The translations under genes and the position numbers were made by a program. The notes under the pieces were generated by a model. That model was not told the origin of the DNA, did not search any database, and worked only from the letters and a program-made list of their open reading frames with translations. 64,000 bases of DNA from Alphaproteobacteria bacterium. GTDB taxonomy: Bacteria > Pseudomonadota > Alphaproteobacteria > UBA9219. How positions within the stretch are numbered: the stretch's first letter is position 1; each line of letters opens with the position of its first letter. Location: NCBI GenBank assembly GCA_019233975.1, contig JAFALY010000008.1, positions 7,580 through 71,579 of the forward strand. The letters run 5' to 3'. Shown one piece after another: positions 39,720 to 64,000 of the stretch.

Positions 39720-40481
39720 ATGACCAAGCCGTTTATCCTGATCGCCACGCCTTGTTATGGGGGGGTGGTGCATCAGGGGTACATGGAATCTGTCGTTCAA
39801 TTGATGGGCTACGCGTCGGCGCATAATTTTGCCGTGACGCTGGCCCTGAACGGCAGCGATTCACTGATCACCCGCAGCCGCAACAAGCTGGTGTCCGCGT
39901 TTTTGGACACGACCGCCATGACGCATCTGATGTTTATCGATGCGGATATTTCTTTCCGTCCGGAAGACCTGCACCGTCTGTTGCAATTTGACGAAGATGT
40001 CGTGGCCGGCATGTATCCCGTCAAGAATATCGACTGGGCTCGCTTGCAGCAGCACCAACAACCCGGCATGCCGGAACAGCATCTGAAGGAAGGCGGCCTG
40101 AATTATGTCGGCTTCGCCTGTCAGGGGGCCGAGCGTGAAGAGCGCGATGGTTTCGTCACGGGCATTTATGCCGGAACAGGTTTTAAGCTTATTAAACGCA
40201 GCGTTCTGGAACGTATGATCGCCGCCTATCCGGAAACAAGGTTTAAGGCGTCGCAGACTTTCCCGATTCCAAAGACGCAAAGCCAGAACCAGTACGCGCT
40301 TTTTGACTGCATTATCGACCCCGATACCGGTCTGTATCTGAGTGAAGATTTTGCCTTCTGCCAGCGGTGGCGCAAGATCGGCGGCAGAATATGGCTGGAT
40401 ACACGAACCCGGCTGGGCCATATCGGCTCCTACCGGTTCGAAGGTACGCCTGCGCTGCAGGTTATGGGGCCATTGGGCTAA
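39720..40481 (+). CDS. GT-A fold glycosyltransferase-like protein
   Basis: IATPCYGG, SLITRSRN, FIDADI (DxD), GTGFKLI, SEDFAFC and GHIG. Confidence 0.7.
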   Translation: MTKPFILIATPCYGGVVHQGYMESVVQLMGYASAHNFAVTLALNGSDSLITRSRNKLVSAFLDTTAMTHLMFIDADISFRPEDLHRLLQFDEDVVAGMYPVKNIDWARLQQHQQPGMPEQHLKEGGLNYVGFACQGAEREERDGFVTGIYAGTGFKLIKRSVLERMIAAYPETRFKASQTFPIPKTQSQNQYALFDCIIDPDTGLYLSEDFAFCQRWRKIGGRIWLDTRTRLGHIGSYRFEGTPALQVMGPLG

Positions 40482-44663: not shown

Positions 44664-45818
44664 CTAACGCGGGGTGGCGGCGATATTAATCGTGACTTTC
44701 ACAGCCTTTTTAACCATTTCGTCGTCATCCCATTGATTTATACCAATGTTATAGTCGCTACGGCTCAGGTCAACCTGCCCCTTGGCATAGGTTATACCAT
44801 CCACAACCCGCAGGCAGAACGGCAGATCAACCGCATGGCTGATTCCTTTGATGGACAGCGTACCCGGCGCCAGAAAACAGTCATTGCCTGTTGACTTGAT
44901 GTTGGCCGCTGTAAATTTGGCTTGCGGGAATTCGGCTGCATTGAACCATTCAAATTGCGGCAGGTAGGTATCGCGTTCCTTACTGCCCGCAGTGGCGCTG
45001 GTGATGTCCACCAGGGTGGTGATGTACCCGTTTTCGGGATGGTTCGGGTCAAAGTCGATATTCGCCGTAAATTTTTTGAAATCGCCGTCGAACTTCTCAC
45101 CGCTTTGTGTGCCGGTGAAGGTGATGCCGCTATGTTTGTAATCAACAGCCCAGGGATGGCTGGCTGCGTGTGCCGGGCCGGGTAATAGCAAGCCGATGCT
45201 CAGCAGCAGGGCTATGGCCGTGCCGTTCAAACGCTTCAGCAAACCGTGCAGGAAACGTGGCGCCATACGCAGCAGGATATCATCGCGGTTGATGAAGTGG
45301 TGTTTCAGAGCTGCTGCGGCGTGCAGCGCTACAAATGCTGCGATCACATAGGCGATTATGCCATGCGCATCACCAAACAGGTCATGAATTTCTTTTTTGT
45401 TCTCCAGGTCTCCCAGGTAGGGAATGGCCGGCCATGGCACGATGTTGAACAACAAGGTGCGTAATTTGAAAGTGGATGTCGAAATCACCACCCACCCTGT
45501 GATCGGCATAATAATCATCAGGGCGTACAGAAGGTAGTGTGTGCCGTGGGCCAGTTTGATCTCCCACGGTTTGGCGGTGGCGGGCAAGGCGGGCGCGGCG
45601 TGAGTCAGGCGCCAGCCGATGCGGACAAGCGCCAGCAACAGAATCGATACGCCGATGGATTTGTGTAACTGGAACAGACTGAATTTTGCGGGGTCTGTGT
45701 TGGGCATGTCCGTCATGATCCAGCCCAGCGCCAGCATGCCGAGGATGGCGAGGCCGATCAGCCAGTGAAGCGTTTTTGCGACAACGTTATAGGCGGTAAC
45801 AGTGGATACTGAAGACAT
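44664..45818 (-). CDS. Cytochrome b561 - YceI fusion protein
   Basis: LHW, LHKSIG, heme His residues and ALKHH; YceI-like WAVD..HSGITF, FPQAKF and GTLSIKG. Confidence 0.85.
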   Translation of the reverse strand: MSSVSTVTAYNVVAKTLHWLIGLAILGMLALGWIMTDMPNTDPAKFSLFQLHKSIGVSILLLALVRIGWRLTHAAPALPATAKPWEIKLAHGTHYLLYALMIIMPITGWVVISTSTFKLRTLLFNIVPWPAIPYLGDLENKKEIHDLFGDAHGIIAYVIAAFVALHAAAALKHHFINRDDILLRMAPRFLHGLLKRLNGTAIALLLSIGLLLPGPAHAASHPWAVDYKHSGITFTGTQSGEKFDGDFKKFTANIDFDPNHPENGYITTLVDITSATAGSKERDTYLPQFEWFNAAEFPQAKFTAANIKSTGNDCFLAPGTLSIKGISHAVDLPFCLRVVDGITYAKGQVDLSRSDYNIGINQWDDDEMVKKAVKVTINIAATPR

Positions 45819-45973
45819 TGAATCCTCCACCTTATCAATCGGATGTGGAGGGAGTTTGCCCGACATGCAGCAAAATTCAAGCCAATTTTAATATTTCTTA
45901 AGCATAGTGCGTCGATAAGGTTTTAGGGATATACCTACCCGGGTTCGTTGCTTTTCCTGTTCCAGGATTTTTC

Positions 45974-54255: not shown

Positions 54256-54267
54256 TTGGAGCTTGTG

Positions 54268-54507
54268 ATGAAAGCACGCATTGATGTGACCTTGAAAGAA
54301 GGCGTTTTGGATCCGCAGGGCAAGGCGATAGGCCACGCGTTGCAAAATCTTGGCTTTGCCGGTGTGAAGGATGTGCGTGTGGGTAAGGTGATCGAGCTTG
54401 ATCTGGCCGAAGCCGATGCGTCGCGTGCGACCGAGGTGGCCCGTCAGATGGCCGAGAAAATGCTCGCCAACCAAGTCATCGAAGATTTCCGCGTTACTAT
54501 TCTCTAA
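54268..54507 (+). CDS. purS: Phosphoribosylformylglycinamidine synthase subunit PurS
   Basis: LKEGVLDPQG, VRVGK and LANQVIE. Confidence 0.93.
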   Translation: MKARIDVTLKEGVLDPQGKAIGHALQNLGFAGVKDVRVGKVIELDLAEADASRATEVARQMAEKMLANQVIEDFRVTIL

Positions 54508-54547
54508 TTTCCTTCCTTTCTACTCCCTTTCTCCCATGGGGTTTATT

Positions 54548-54883
54548 ATGGCACGTTTGCGCAGCATTTTTTCCGTTTTGGGTTTTCTGGCCGTGATGAC
54601 CGGCGCGGGTATGGCCCTGACCGGCTGTGCCGACACCAATCAGGTCAGCTTTGTTCGCCTGTCTATGGACGCACCACCGCCTGCACAGATCGAAGATGTG
54701 CCTGAGCTGAACAACCCGCCTACCGAAACATGGCGCCCCGGCTATTGGGCCTATACCGGCGCTGATTTCTATTGGGTGCCGGGCGAGGTGATCCCGCGCC
54801 CTTCAGAAACGGCCATATGGATCGCCGACCATTGGGAACAACGCGGCTACGGCTGGGCCTTTGTGCCCGGCGTGTGGCGCTGA
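54548..54883 (+). CDS. YXWGXW-repeat lipoprotein
   Basis: Lipobox LTGC; WRPGYW, YWVPG, WIADHW and FVPGVW. Confidence 0.75.
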   Translation: MARLRSIFSVLGFLAVMTGAGMALTGCADTNQVSFVRLSMDAPPPAQIEDVPELNNPPTETWRPGYWAYTGADFYWVPGEVIPRPSETAIWIADHWEQRGYGWAFVPGVWR

Positions 54884-54937
54884 TTTAATCCTGACGGTTT
54901 ATAACGGTGTGTAGGACTTAGGCGTGTCGCTTGGGCC

Positions 54938-55735
54938 TTACAGCAGCGTGTGTTCCAGAATATTCAGGCAAAACTCGGCAGCGGGCGCCACGGCCTCGAT
55001 CACCGGCTGGACGCCGTCCAGCATTGACCCCGCCGCGTGGCCAAAGGCCGACAGCATATCGCTGCAGATATGGCTGATGCCGTTCGGGACATCGCGCACA
55101 AGCCAGTCACCGCAGGCTTCAAAGCGGCCAAGGATACCCTCTTCAACAAGCTCCGGCACATGTGCCACGGCATCCAGATGCAGCATCTGTGTAAGATGGT
55201 CGTCGATAAAGGATGGGATGTAGTCGAACGGCGCGTCGATGGATGTGCCGATATGACCGATGCGAGCCAGTGCGGACTCAACCTGCTCTAAATGCTCCGG
55301 GAGTTCTTCCCAAAAATAGGGGTTGTTCCATAACTGGATGACATAGGGGCCGGATGACCCTGTGATCACAATCTTGCCCCAGGCGGCGTAACCATGGTCG
55401 TCAGGATCCCATGGGTGCTGGTGACCTTTTTCCTGGTTGATGCTGTGGAACAATAACTGCCTGTTTTGCGGATCTTTTTTCGAGCCGCCAAACTTTTTGG
55501 GTTTTATATGATCGTCGGTCAGCAGTTCCTTGACGATGGGCACAAGAAAACCGCCTGCAAGAAAACCTGCCGTGCCGGTTGCGACATGTTCGGCGACATG
55601 CAAGGCGTGAAATGTTACCTGACCAGCCCGGATAAGGGCGTTCAACATGCGTTTCAGGCGTTTGTAATCGCCAATTGCGGTCGTGTTATCACCGCGTGCG
55701 CCTATCTTGGGGGTCTTGTTGCCGCGCCTAGACAT
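54938..55735 (-). CDS. Orphan protein with an HNH endonuclease motif
   Basis: DHIKPKKFGGS...NRQLLFHSINQEKG at aa 75-104 (55424-55513); AAGGAG RBS. Confidence 0.6.
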   Translation of the reverse strand: MSRRGNKTPKIGARGDNTTAIGDYKRLKRMLNALIRAGQVTFHALHVAEHVATGTAGFLAGGFLVPIVKELLTDDHIKPKKFGGSKKDPQNRQLLFHSINQEKGHQHPWDPDDHGYAAWGKIVITGSSGPYVIQLWNNPYFWEELPEHLEQVESALARIGHIGTSIDAPFDYIPSFIDDHLTQMLHLDAVAHVPELVEEGILGRFEACGDWLVRDVPNGISHICSDMLSAFGHAAGSMLDGVQPVIEAVAPAAEFCLNILEHTLL

Positions 55736-55741
55736 CGCAAC

Positions 55742-55770
55742 GCTCCTTTCCGCAAACGGCGGAAAGGGGC
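55742..55770 (-). promoter_or_regulatory. RBS-sequestering hairpin
   Basis: Minus strand GCCCCTTTCCGC-CGTTT-GCGGAAAGGAGC forms 11 of 12 pairs and contains the AAGGAG SD 7 nt before the ATG. Confidence 0.7.
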
Positions 55771-55966
55771 AAACCGGGTGTCATGGAGCCTGCGAACGGA
55801 TCAACCCAGAAACAACCAACCCAACAATAAAAATGCCCTAACAAAACCATCGCCCTAACACTGTCGAAATACACAGGTGTGTGGGTTAGATAGCAAACCG
55901 CATCTGAAACTAAAACGGGAAATTAGGTTTAAAAAAACGACTGTTTTGGGCGGAGGTTAACGGGGC

Positions 55967-57286
55967 TTAGTTAATTTCATCCTCACCCTGCCGGGCGGGC
56001 GGGATAATCAGGACTTTGTCCACGCGGCGGGCATCCATATCGACGACTTCAAACCTGAAATCCTGCCATGTCGCCTTGTCGCCTGTGGTCGGCAGGCGGC
56101 CCAATTGTTCAATCACAAAACCGGCCAGCGTGTGGAAATCGCCGCTGCCCTGCATGCCTTTGACGGACAGCAAACTTTCAACTTCGTCGATGGGGGTCAT
56201 GCCGTCCAGAAGCCAGCTGCCATCCTCGCGTAGATGCGGCGCATCGGTCGTATCCTGACCATGCGCCGGCAGTTCGCCGGTGATGGCCTGCGCGATATCG
56301 GTCAGGGTGACGATGCCTTCCACGCTGCCATATTCGTCGGCGATGATGGCGATATACTGGCCGGATTGTTTGAACTGTTCCACGAGGCGCAGCACATGCG
56401 TGGTGTCGGGTACAATCAACGCTTGCCGCATAATACCCTTAACAGTGACGGGCTGCCCGTCAAAGGCGCGGTCCAGAATATCCTTGGCGTAAATAATGCC
56501 CAGAATTTCTTCCAAATCCCCGCGCGCAACAGGGAAGCAGCTATAGGGATGGTGGCGTATGACGCGCACATGTTTGTCGGACGCGTCATCGATATCCAGC
56601 CAGACCATATCCACGCGCGGTGTCATAATCGACCGAACGGTGCGGTCCGCCAGACGCATGACACTTTCCAGCATGACTTTTTCCGCTTGTTTGAACACAC
56701 CGCTTTCGGCGCCTTCGGCGATCAAATCCTTGACTTCTTCTTCGGTAATCACATTGTCGGGCACCTTGGCGAGGCCAAACAGGTTCAGCACAATCTCGGT
56801 TGATTGCTTGAGCATCCAGACGATCGGTGCCGCGATGGTGGCGAACAGGCGCATAATGTAGGAAACGCGGATGGCGATGGGTTCCGCATAGGAAAGGCCG
56901 ATGCGTTTGGGCAGCAGCTCGCCCACTACCAGATTGACATAAGTGACAGCCATAATGGTCAGCGCCAACGCCGCCGCCTCGCCATGCGGCGCTATCCAGC
57001 TATAGCTATTCAGATAGTCGGTCAAATGTCCCGCCAATGTGGCGCCCGAATACGCGCCGGCGAACACGCTGTTCAGTGTCATGCCAATTTGCACAATGGA
57101 CAGAAAGGATGCGGGATCTTCAGCCAGTTCCAGGGCCAGTTTGGCCCCTTCGTGCCCGTCATCGGCCAGTTGGCGCAGGCGGGTTCGGCGCGCCGAGACG
57201 ATGGCCAGCTCCGACATGGCAAAAAAGCCGTTCAACAGAATAAGAAGAACGACAACAATGAGTTCGTAAGTCAGGGAATTCGACAT
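55967..57286 (-). CDS. HlyC/CorC hemolysin-family (CNNM-CBS) protein
   Basis: NGFFAMSELA, VGELLPK, IMTPR, DEYGSVEGIVT and TLAG. Confidence 0.92.
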   Translation of the reverse strand: MSNSLTYELIVVVLLILLNGFFAMSELAIVSARRTRLRQLADDGHEGAKLALELAEDPASFLSIVQIGMTLNSVFAGAYSGATLAGHLTDYLNSYSWIAPHGEAAALALTIMAVTYVNLVVGELLPKRIGLSYAEPIAIRVSYIMRLFATIAAPIVWMLKQSTEIVLNLFGLAKVPDNVITEEEVKDLIAEGAESGVFKQAEKVMLESVMRLADRTVRSIMTPRVDMVWLDIDDASDKHVRVIRHHPYSCFPVARGDLEEILGIIYAKDILDRAFDGQPVTVKGIMRQALIVPDTTHVLRLVEQFKQSGQYIAIIADEYGSVEGIVTLTDIAQAITGELPAHGQDTTDAPHLREDGSWLLDGMTPIDEVESLLSVKGMQGSGDFHTLAGFVIEQLGRLPTTGDKATWQDFRFEVVDMDARRVDKVLIIPPARQGEDEIN

Positions 57287-61622: not shown

Positions 61623-64000
61623 ATGAACATGGGTAGCGAACAATCATCATTCCTTTACAGCGCCAACGCCGATTTTATCGCCGAACTTTACAAGCGTTAC
61701 ACTGAAAGCCCTGCAGCGGTCGATGTCAGCTGGCGCAATTTCTTCCAGAGTTTGGGGGATGATGTGCGTGACATGCTGGCCGAAATGGGCGGCGCCAGCT
61801 GGGCGCCAGAACGGCAGGACCGCGTTATCTCTAACCAGAATGAACCGGCGAAGGCCGAAGCCAAGGGTAAGCTCGAAGTTCTGCCGACTGACCGCGCGGC
61901 GGTCGACAGCTATCGCATTCAGATGATGATTACCGCTTATCGTCGTCGCGGTCATTATCATGCGAAACTTGATCCGCTGGGGCTGGCTTCCTACGCGCCT
62001 GCCGCCAAGTTGGGCATTGAGGATTTCGGCTTTGCCGAGGCCGATCTCGACCGCCCGATTTTCGTTGACGGAGCCTTCGGTCTGCAAACTGCCACGCTGC
62101 GCGAAATTGTCGACCGTCTGCGCGCAACCTACTGCGGCTCAATCGGCATCGAGTACATGCACATTCTGGATATGGATCAGCATGCCTGGATCCGCGACCG
62201 GATGGAACAATGGGGCGGCCGCACGAATTACAGCACCGCCATGAAGCGCGAGATTCTGCAACGCCTGACCGCGGCGGATTCCTTCGAACGTTTTCTGGCA
62301 ACCAAGTTTGTCGGCGTGAAGCGTTTCGGTCTGGAAGGCGGCGAAGCCATGATCCCCGCGCTGGAAATGGCCATAACAACCGGTGCCAAACGTGGCCTGC
62401 GCGAAGTGGTCGTTGGCATGGCGCATCGCGGTCGTTTGAATATGCTGACCAACGTTCTGGGTAAATCCTTTACGGCGCTGTTTTCTGAATTTCAGGGCAT
62501 GGCCGCCTATCCGGATAGTGTGCAGGGTTCTGGCGACGTGAAATATCATCTTGGCACTTCGATCGACCGCGATTTTGACGGTCAGAATGTCCATTTGACC
62601 ATGAACCCGAACCCCTCGCATCTGGAGTGGGTCAACCCGGTGGTCACCGGGCGTGTGCGCGCGAAGCAGCAACAGCGTTCAGGCCATAACAAGCTGACCA
62701 ACGAAGCCGGTGCGCAGGTCATGGCGTTGTTGATCCATGGCGACGCGGCTTTTGCCGGTCAGGGCATTGTGGGTGAAACCATGCTGCTGTCCGAACTGAA
62801 AGGTTACCGCACGGCGGGCACGTTGCACTACATCATCAACAATCAGGTCGGCTTTACGACCAGTCCGCAATTCTCGCGCTCCGGTGTTTACAGCTGCGAT
62901 TCGGCCAAGGTTTTGCAGGCCCCTATTTTCCACGTAAACGGCGATGATGTGGAAGCGGTCGTTTTCGTCACACAGATGGCGATCGAATTCCGTCAGGCTT
63001 TCCAGAAGGACGCGTTTATCGACATGGTGTGCTATCGCCGCCATGGGCACAACGAAGGCGACGAACCTGCCTTCACGCAACCCATTATGTACCGCGTTAT
63101 CAAGGATCATCCGACCACGCGCGATATCTATGCGCGCAAGCTGGTGGCCGAGGGTTCCCTGCCGCAGGCGGAAGTCGATAAGATTGCAGCTGATTACTGG
63201 GCTGGCCTTGAAGGCAATTTCAAAGCCGCGACGGATTACAAGCCGCAAAAAGCTGATTGGCTGGAAGGTAAATGGCAAGGGCTCGAAGTCGCGCCGCATG
63301 AACTGCAGGATGTCGATACGGGCGTTGACCTTGCCAAGCTGCGTGGCATCGGCGAGGCGCTGTCGCGCGTGCCGGAAAGCTTTAACGTCAACCCGAAGAT
63401 CGCCAAGCAGATGGAAGCCAAGCGGGATATGATGACCAGTGGTCAGGGCATCGACTGGGCGACGGCGGAAGCGCTGGCGTTCGGCAGCTTGTTGACCGAA
63501 GGACACCCGGTGCGTTTGTCGGGGCAAGACTGCGGTCGTGGCACGTTCTCGCAACGCCACTCCGTCCTGCATGATCAACAGACGGACGCACGGTACGTGC
63601 CGTTGAATAACATCCCCGACACCAAAACCTATTATGACGTGCATGACAGCCCGTTGTCCGAAGCCGCCGTGATGGGCTTTGACTATGGGTTCTCTCTGGC
63701 GGAACCGAACGCGCTGGTCTGCTGGGAAGGCCAGTTTGGCGACTTCGCCAATACGGCACAGGTCATCATCGACCAGTTCATTACCTCGTCTGAATCTAAA
63801 TGGCTGCGCATGTCGGGCATCACGCTGTTGCTGCCGCATGGGTACGAAGGGCAGGGGCCGGAACATTCATCCGCCCGTCTTGAACGCTATCTGCAGATGT
63901 GCGCCGAAGACAATATTCAGGTGGCGAACTGCTCGACGCCTGCCAATTACTTCCACATTCTGCGTCGCCAGGTGCGCCGTAACTTCCGCAAGCCGCTGGT
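61623..64000 (+). CDS. sucA: 2-oxoglutarate dehydrogenase E1 (partial; runs off the window and is absent from the ORF track)
   Basis: Manual translation gives MNMGSEQSSFLYSANADFIAELY...; then KRFGLEG, GMAHRGRLN, GDVKYHLG, HGDAAFAGQG and GYEGQGPEHSS. Confidence 0.95.
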   Translation, partial: MNMGSEQSSFLYSANADFIAELYKRYTESPAAVDVSWRNFFQSLGDDVRDMLAEMGGASWAPERQDRVISNQNEPAKAEAKGKLEVLPTDRAAVDSYRIQMMITAYRRRGHYHAKLDPLGLASYAPAAKLGIEDFGFAEADLDRPIFVDGAFGLQTATLREIVDRLRATYCGSIGIEYMHILDMDQHAWIRDRMEQWGGRTNYSTAMKREILQRLTAADSFERFLATKFVGVKRFGLEGGEAMIPALEMAITTGAKRGLREVVVGMAHRGRLNMLTNVLGKSFTALFSEFQGMAAYPDSVQGSGDVKYHLGTSIDRDFDGQNVHLTMNPNPSHLEWVNPVVTGRVRAKQQQRSGHNKLTNEAGAQVMALLIHGDAAFAGQGIVGETMLLSELKGYRTAGTLHYIINNQVGFTTSPQFSRSGVYSCDSAKVLQAPIFHVNGDDVEAVVFVTQMAIEFRQAFQKDAFIDMVCYRRHGHNEGDEPAFTQPIMYRVIKDHPTTRDIYARKLVAEGSLPQAEVDKIAADYWAGLEGNFKAATDYKPQKADWLEGKWQGLEVAPHELQDVDTGVDLAKLRGIGEALSRVPESFNVNPKIAKQMEAKRDMMTSGQGIDWATAEALAFGSLLTEGHPVRLSGQDCGRGTFSQRHSVLHDQQTDARYVPLNNIPDTKTYYDVHDSPLSEAAVMGFDYGFSLAEPNALVCWEGQFGDFANTAQVIIDQFITSSESKWLRMSGITLLLPHGYEGQGPEHSSARLERYLQMCAEDNIQVANCSTPANYFHILRRQVRRNFRKPL

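Follow-up and report, generated by a model that had tools for sequence, protein, structure and literature searches.

A 64,000-nucleotide (nt) stretch of contig JAFALY010000008.1 (Alphaproteobacteria bacterium, GenBank assembly GCA_019233975.1), hereafter the window, carries on its reverse strand an open reading frame (ORF) for a protein of 265 amino acids (aa). In this protein a basic N-terminal segment leads into a short HNH core free of cysteines, which is followed by a predicted β-hairpin and an acidic C-terminal domain. Sequence comparisons suggest that the core belongs to a nuclease whose activity may be tightly controlled.

The gene and its product

The ORF is a real protein-coding, host-adapted gene, because a homologue of like length and architecture exists (P0002, 266 aa, E 1.4e-20), its codon adaptation index (CAI) and its GC content at the three codon positions are typical, and a Shine-Dalgarno sequence, AGGAG, lies at 55743-55747, with the ATG 7 nt further on. 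P0002 shares the whole architecture of the 265-aa protein at ~38% identity. The CAI of 0.734 corresponds to the 54th percentile among 826 long ORFs of the same genome, as compared with values of 0.46-0.67 in the five alternative frames, and GC contents at codon positions 1, 2 and 3 are 0.62/0.39/0.65 against a genome mean of 0.61/0.43/0.62. Such native codon usage argues against a recent acquisition.

The frame is unbroken in three near-identical strain variants, and its DNA is present in rhizosphere and soil metagenome runs. Contigs from three soil/rhizosphere runs are near-identical and of low depth; they hold three variants in the leader, all outside the hairpin described below, and none in the ORF except a single-base gap at 54938 in one 59-nt contig. 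A scan of metagenome contigs returned a sole match (L002), from the same species and 99.8% identical over 6067 nt, which differs from the window at one position within the gene, too few for a ratio of nonsynonymous to synonymous substitution rates (dN/dS). A sigma-70 promoter scan found 0 sites, and a single terminator-like site, located within the ORF, is not above chance expectation.

The protein is laid out with a marked charge asymmetry (Table 1), the isoelectric point (pI) falling from 11.7 in the N-terminus to 9.3 in the core (aa 73-110) and 4.3 in the tail. A basic N-terminus and an acidic, His-rich C-terminus, both described in an earlier reading of the DNA made without database searches (the original prediction), are borne out by this composition: aa 1-40 contain 10 K/R and 2 D/E, and aa 136-265 contain 21 D/E, 3 K/R and 8 His. 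The first Cys does not occur before residue 208. In the alignment-guided model described below, the N-terminal helix has predicted local distance difference test (pLDDT) values of 82 (block aa 21-30) and 70 (block aa 31-40), and the strands of the hairpin after the core, 119-126 and 129-134, have pLDDT values of 56-61; the segment around them, aa 111-135, is only 16% identical to P0002.

Table 1. Position of the gene, of the segments of its product and of the leader repeat in the window
Feature	Coordinates	Strand	Basis
Complete ORF, 265 aa plus stop codon	54938..55735	-	ATG-to-stop frame; homologue P0002; codon usage
Basic N-terminal segment, aa 1-40, pI 11.7, helix predicted at aa 17-36	55616..55735	-	Composition, model
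Gly-rich hydrophobic stretch, aa 50-68, at about the place of the first CxxC knuckle of canonical HNH proteins	55532..55588	-	Hydropathy
HNH / His-Me finger core, aa 70-110, cysteine-free	55406..55528	-	Profile, phmmer and hhalign matches; model
Predicted β-hairpin after the HNH core, aa 118-136	55328..55384	-	Models
Acidic, His-rich C-terminal domain, aa 136-265	54941..55330	-	Composition
Best-conserved part of the protein, aa 201-265	54941..55135	-	Comparison with P0002
12-nt inverted repeat in the 5' leader (I10), 3' arm with the Shine-Dalgarno sequence	55742..55770	-	Repeat scan, folding

A cysteine-free HNH core

The HNH motif that had been read at aa 75-104 is exact, with D75-H76, G83-G84, N91, N100 and K103 in place. 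Alignment A5 shows D75, H76, G84, N91, N100 and K103 without variation across its 31 rows, and D75, H76, N91, N100 and K103 are kept in P0002, the sole distant homologue, so that H76, N91 and N100, which had been described as intact, are also conserved beyond the protein itself. By position, D75-H76 would provide the general base and N100 a metal ligand. In the guided model, the D-H dipeptide typical of a His-Me finger ends the strand 72-76, the conserved hairpin Asn corresponds to N91, and the metal-ligand residue N100 lies within the helix 97-103.

An exhaustive phmmer search of 1.84 billion cluster representatives ties aa 70-110 to P0004 (E 2.9e-4, 58% identity), a 74-aa canonical HNH protein with both CxxC pairs and a PF01844 score of 51.7 bits. 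Shared with P0004, an example of the canonical HNH endonuclease domain (PF01844/HNH_5), are the D-H dipeptide, P79, G84, N91, Q93, N100, E102-K103-G104 and P-W-D, and the model of the 265-aa protein shows the β-β-α order of that domain. Unlike P0004, the 265-aa protein has ~70 aa of unrelated sequence before the core and 155 aa after it, and both CxxC pairs of the canonical HNH are absent. The Pfam HNH profile (PF01844) itself scores 16.7 bits on the protein (E 0.0083) and 19.5 bits in the genome scan, against a gathering cut-off of 21.4 bits. HNH_4 and HNH_5 match less well, the same residues are matched by four PHROG families with the annotation HNH endonuclease (E 0.015-0.5), and NCBIfam holds no family that matches the 265-aa protein. 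For profile-profile comparison, a set of 27 HNH segments was formed from 26 segments of alphaproteobacterial genomes plus P0004, 26 of the 27 matching PF01844 at E<=0.001. Against this set hhalign gives 96.0% (E 4.1e-9) for the 265-aa protein and 90.2% (E 1.5e-6) for P0002, scores that are somewhat favoured, since the segments were picked as matches of a profile that includes the 265-aa protein. Taken by sequence, aa 70-110 form an HNH core that descends from the canonical zinc-knuckle type with loss of all four cysteines.

Structure prediction agrees with this assignment within limits. The single-sequence AlphaFold2 model is unusable (mean pLDDT 38.6); guided by a 31-row alignment, AlphaFold2 reaches a mean pLDDT of 51.2, with aa 70-105 at 74-81, and predicts the β-β-α order as strand 72-76, strand 92-96 and helix 97-103. 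Both features on which the original prediction had staked its reading are present, namely the β-β-α arrangement at 72-103 in the guided model and the conservation of H76, N91 and N100 in P0002. Foldseek against the Protein Data Bank (PDB) returns nothing at E<=0.001. At rank 46, Foldseek lists the colicin E9 DNase over 26 core columns (root mean square deviation 0.9 Å, E 1.5, probability 0.57). VIA-align places Cas9 HNH domains in 6 of 21 rows, covering model residues 18-143 with Z scores of 2.2-3.7, and the matches of a wide VIA search are confined to coiled coils (Z <= 5.4) laid over a long helix of low confidence. When the A2 profile is run against PDB sequences, 13 of 15 matches are Cas9 or IscB HNH regions, the best at E 0.012. 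The structural results are compatible with an HNH fold and are not independent proof of it.

The absence of zinc cysteines, the headline feature of the original prediction, is itself confirmed, and both CxxC pairs are missing from the 265-aa protein and from P0002, neither of which therefore belongs to the zinc-knuckle HNH subtype. The residues F-H-S-I stand at aa 96-99 in place of a CxxC, as had been noted. The residues GFLAGG do occur at 57-62; their equivalence to the upstream CxxCG stays putative, since aa 44-68 have pLDDT values below 50 and no reliable alignment to other HNH proteins. As a sign of novelty, however, the loss was overstated: in PMC5714182, many His-Me fingers are described without a zinc knuckle and with stability from other elements, and zinc knuckle pairs do not define the superfamily. 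The loss is ordinary within the His-Me finger superfamily and not remarkable in itself. The second CxxC is also absent from several Cas9-type segments and from a ~98-aa subfamily in three alphaproteobacterial genomes. This small HNH subfamily (frames of ~98-174 aa; L024:1390-1686, L035:1120-1644, L052:1297-1707) ends in a K-G-D-x-Y-P-W-like tail, and its members give the longest matches to the family profile outside the window's own genome (profile positions 37-110).

Among known systems, the HNH domains of Cas9 and IscB give the best PDB sequence matches and the only recurrent structural matches, all of them weak, and the structural likeness is partly built in, because Cas9-type segments are within the alignment that guided the model. 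The 265-aa protein differs from Cas9/IscB in lacking RuvC, the bridge helix and the guide-RNA-binding parts; there are no cas genes nearby, an Rfam scan of 54400-56300 gave nothing credible and no match of note, and beyond the HNH core no Cas9/IscB hallmark was found.

The colicin E7/E9 DNases likewise have a cysteine-free HNH core, and colicin DNases are neutralised by an acidic helical immunity protein (Im7/Im9). Unlike in the colicins, the acidic part is here fused in cis, translocation and receptor domains and a separate immunity gene are absent, and the colicin DNase and immunity families show no significant sequence or fold match to the 265-aa protein. A feature search of the ESM Atlas ranks two Tox-GHH clusters first, with scores of 0.79 and 0.76 that shuffled proteins reach as well, and no Tox-* Pfam family matches at E<=10. 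Tox-GHH and its relatives are cysteine-poor His-Me fingers according to PMC5714182. In contrast to polymorphic toxins, the 265-aa protein carries its core in the N-terminal half rather than at the very C-terminus and has no pre-toxin or trafficking domains and no immunity-like neighbour.

The genome has one canonical HNH gene (G000:C29:41048-41680, L020), which belongs to a ~186-aa family highly conserved across alphaproteobacteria (relatives L051, L053-L063 and L065-L067; 15 members 49-80% identical to L067, the first row) and recognisable by its N-terminal region and by an aromatic motif towards the C-terminus. The 265-aa protein has the HNH core in common with this family, together with a similar aromatic motif ~30 aa past the core (BLASTP E 0.037, single pair); the motif is not kept in P0002, and the N- and C-terminal regions are unrelated. 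Descent from the ~186-aa family was considered and rejected: hhalign against the 15 members reaches the core only, at 15%, and P0002 gives 3%.

A tiny family with a conserved acidic tail

The family is very small and lineage-restricted. The exhaustive phmmer search returned four matches in total, P0001-P0004. P0001 is 99% identical to the 265-aa protein and is the sole find of a word-indexed search with the protein (1 of 1441 candidates); the same type of search with the family alignment recovered P0001 and P0002 (2 of 5188). P0003 is a low-complexity repeat protein of 1628 aa whose match was discounted as spurious, and P0004 matches the HNH core only. Two divergent family members are thereby known among ~15 billion proteins, or 1.84 billion representatives. 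Querying shorter proteins with aa 56-115 gave no candidate. Searches of 40 relatives and of the 70 other species genomes of the order turned up no full-length relative, and the count is 0 of 400 in genomes sampled across the class. Because of these two absences, 0 of 70 and 0 of 400 full-length, the gene is not part of the core gene set. Scans of GTDB species contigs with A1 and then P0002, and of viral contigs with A1, P0002 and P0004, yielded none, and tblastn against phages and plasmids gave no match at E<=1.

In the class sample, 61 of the 400 genomes have partial matches, all at profile positions 16-135 of 246 and mostly in the core at 55-95. Many of these HNH-core matches lie in frames of ~1040-1070 aa or 400-500 aa (e.g., G211:C6, G093:C2, G140:C3 and G202:C105), which are probably Cas9 of type II-C and proteins of group II introns, respectively.

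Conservation between the two divergent members is highest in the tail. Residues 201-265 are 52% identical to P0002, a figure that rises to 64% in the final 25 aa, as compared with 38% in the HNH core; a ten-residue string with two prolines within aa 201-265 is identical in both proteins. The C-terminus had been described as having no recognisable family, and this holds: aa 136-265 have no relative in Pfam, NCBIfam, PADLOC or the PDB, the ESM Atlas gives no usable match for aa 111-265, and the sole relative found by phmmer is P0002. It is this conserved acidic tail, together with the tiny family, that is unusual about the protein, rather than its loss of cysteines. The tail appears to be important, because it is better conserved than the core. 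A complex prediction between the tail and the HNH half scores 0.00 with an uncertain partner fold, and counts neither way. Among the papers listed by a literature search on autoinhibited HNH nucleases with acidic tails, none was pertinent.

Surroundings and leader

The gene lies downstream of corC (CNNM/CBS/CorC_HlyC), in the same direction and with a 231-bp spacer, and is convergent with an ORF of WXXGXW repeats. By Pfam family, from which all neighbouring gene names are our reading, one flank carries rplI, rpsF, queA, tgt, sulP, pdxJ, purC, purS and tRNA-Phe, and the other carries rmuC (two genes away), msrB, msrA and a DsbD-like gene. The description of a lone gene among core-type genes, with no methylase, immunity or cas gene, holds across 39.7-63.9 kb. 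That it is an insertion is not shown: synteny of the corC region is not conserved in the nearest genomes searched (CorC 54-67% identical), and codon usage is native. In five relatives examined, corC stands next to rmuC in one and the HNH gene occurs in none. All seven integrase-family matches of the genome are on other contigs. Inverted repeats I1-I9 in the flanks are imperfect, fall within neighbouring genes and were taken as chance.

In the leader, two repeat arms (55742-55753 and 55759-55770) are 92% complementary across a 5-nt loop and form a stem of at least 9 bp in which the Shine-Dalgarno sequence is paired. The start codon is also paired in the minimum-energy fold of the leader. Over 85 nt this fold has -34.2 kcal/mol and a z-score of -2.18, and 7 of 200 shuffles fold equally well; no variants occur within the hairpin in two other soil runs. 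The hairpin is a possible translation-limiting element, a suggestive and not a proven one.

Possible functions

Among the explanations considered, we favour an HNH nuclease that is active and under tight control, with a family-specific acidic domain that would regulate, target or oligomerise it; we assign this reading a probability of roughly 0.4. The gene product would be a cytoplasmic, divalent-metal-dependent His-Me finger nuclease, in which the N-terminal helix and the HNH core, both basic, may bind nucleic acid and cut it via the one-metal mechanism usual for such enzymes. The helix and the hairpin that flank the core may stand in for the lost zinc knuckle as structural support. The acidic C-terminal domain would be a family-specific functional module that restrains the nuclease through masking by complementary charge, links it to a partner or signal, or makes it oligomerise, and the leader hairpin, by sequestering the Shine-Dalgarno sequence, may keep expression low. 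The whole would fit a nuclease that is kept under tight control, may harm its own cell and serves in conflict, whether in abortive defence or in a toxin-like role, better than a core housekeeping enzyme. If an active nuclease is indeed held by its own acidic domain, the protein would present a new HNH regulatory domain and a compact example of a cis-inhibited nuclease; its narrow distribution and lack of context limit any wider importance. A cysteine-less HNH core is unremarkable, and the part left to explain is a 130-aa domain in two divergent proteins.

Several results weigh against this interpretation. On the side of the core, the protein stays below the PF01844 cut-off, P0002 by itself matches no Pfam family, and the P0002 core is acidic (pI 4.5; 2 K/R and 8 D/E) and lacks the GG, which fits a relaxed nuclease function or another substrate. 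On the side of structure, Foldseek gives no PDB match at E<=0.001, all Z scores of the Cas9 comparison are below 4, and the hhalign scores, the guided model and the Cas9 structural matches are not fully independent of the hypothesis. As to context, the region 39.7-63.9 kb is free of methylase, cas, integrase, immunity-like and phage genes, the locus bears no mobile-element marks or flanking repeats, PADLOC-DB 2.0 (library of 2023) returns 0 families at E<=1, and the native codon usage speaks against recent acquisition. The z-score of the leader hairpin is modest, and its conservation is known within the species only. Any role of the C-terminal domain is purely inferred, and no result ties the gene to defence or toxicity. 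The toxin, defence and secreted-effector roles and the possible autoinhibition by the tail offered in the original prediction find no direct support, neither from PADLOC nor from an immunity or methylase neighbour. Delivery by a type VI or type IV secretion system was considered and rejected, since the genome, rated 100% complete, gave no match to the Hcp or VirB4 families.

A specific form of control, in which the acidic tail masks the basic face of the HNH core until a trigger (phage infection, proteolysis or a metabolite) releases or remodels it, would make one gene both nuclease and inhibitor; we consider it unlikely. If true, it would constitute an undescribed one-gene module of abortive defence or suicide, with a new regulatory fold.

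The best-surviving rival, although still a doubtful one, sees in the HNH core a relic with relaxed or lost catalysis that persists as a structural or nucleic-acid- or protein-binding module, and places the selected function in the C-terminal domain. The higher conservation of aa 201-265 than of the core (52% and 38%), the acidic, GG-less P0002 core with no Pfam match, and the sub-threshold Pfam score of the 265-aa protein all point this way. Yet D75, H76, N91, N100 and K103 are all kept at ~38% identity, where drift should erase at least one of them.

Somewhat less probable is a housekeeping nuclease peculiar to the lineage that serves DNA repair or recombination, inherited vertically in the genus and unsampled elsewhere. 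Native codon usage and GC pattern, housekeeping neighbours with rmuC two genes away, and the lack of mobile-element or defence marks would all suit such an enzyme, and the window's genus is represented by one species genome among those searched. However, the gene is absent from the 70 genomes of the order and, in full length, from the 400 of the class, and a single distant relative in 1.84 billion representatives makes for a patchiness unlike that of a repair enzyme. Its supposed setting is no better conserved, with the corC-rmuC adjacency in only 1 of 5 relatives and the HNH gene in none.

We regard as distinctly improbable a membrane-anchored or exported nuclease with a cytoplasmic N-terminus, aa 50-68 spanning the membrane, and the HNH and acidic domains in the periplasm. 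Zinc-cysteine knuckles would be disfavoured in that compartment, and all knuckle cysteines are lost; moreover, a hydrophobic, Gly-rich stretch comes after the strongly basic N-terminus, and P0002 likewise has hydrophobic stretches after a basic start. But the Kyte-Doolittle 19-residue mean of aa 50-68, 1.47, is borderline and under the usual threshold of 1.6 for a membrane helix, the hydrophobic stretches of the protein and of P0002 fall at unaligned positions, and no signal-peptide-like start is apparent.

Very unlikely is the view that a selfish, free-standing HNH endonuclease of the homing type invaded the intergenic stretch between corC and the lipoprotein gene. This view would explain a single gene without partners that is absent from relatives, and the core resembles mobile-element enzymes (the 400-500-aa frames presumed to be group II intron proteins); against it stand native codon usage, a site without flanking repeats or tRNA, a tail that is acidic and not a basic DNA-binding domain, and the lack of relatives among the phages, plasmids and viral contigs searched. 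An open frame due to chance or a decaying, non-functional pseudogene, for which only the tiny family speaks, is barely credible given a homologue of equal length at 38% identity, an undisrupted frame that is intact in three near-identical strains, codon usage that is best in the ORF frame (0.734 against 0.46-0.67 elsewhere) and a good Shine-Dalgarno sequence.

Elsewhere in the window, within 54256-54883, purS is followed by the WXXGXW-repeat ORF, a putative lipoprotein gene, and not by purQ, which usually follows purS. Four ORFs (146, 177, 395 and 253 aa) at 61647-63866 and 39720-40481 have no Pfam match at E<=1e-5, and a 400-aa ORF at 44664-45866, on the reverse strand, combines cytochrome b561 (Ni_hydr_CYTB) and YceI-like domains.

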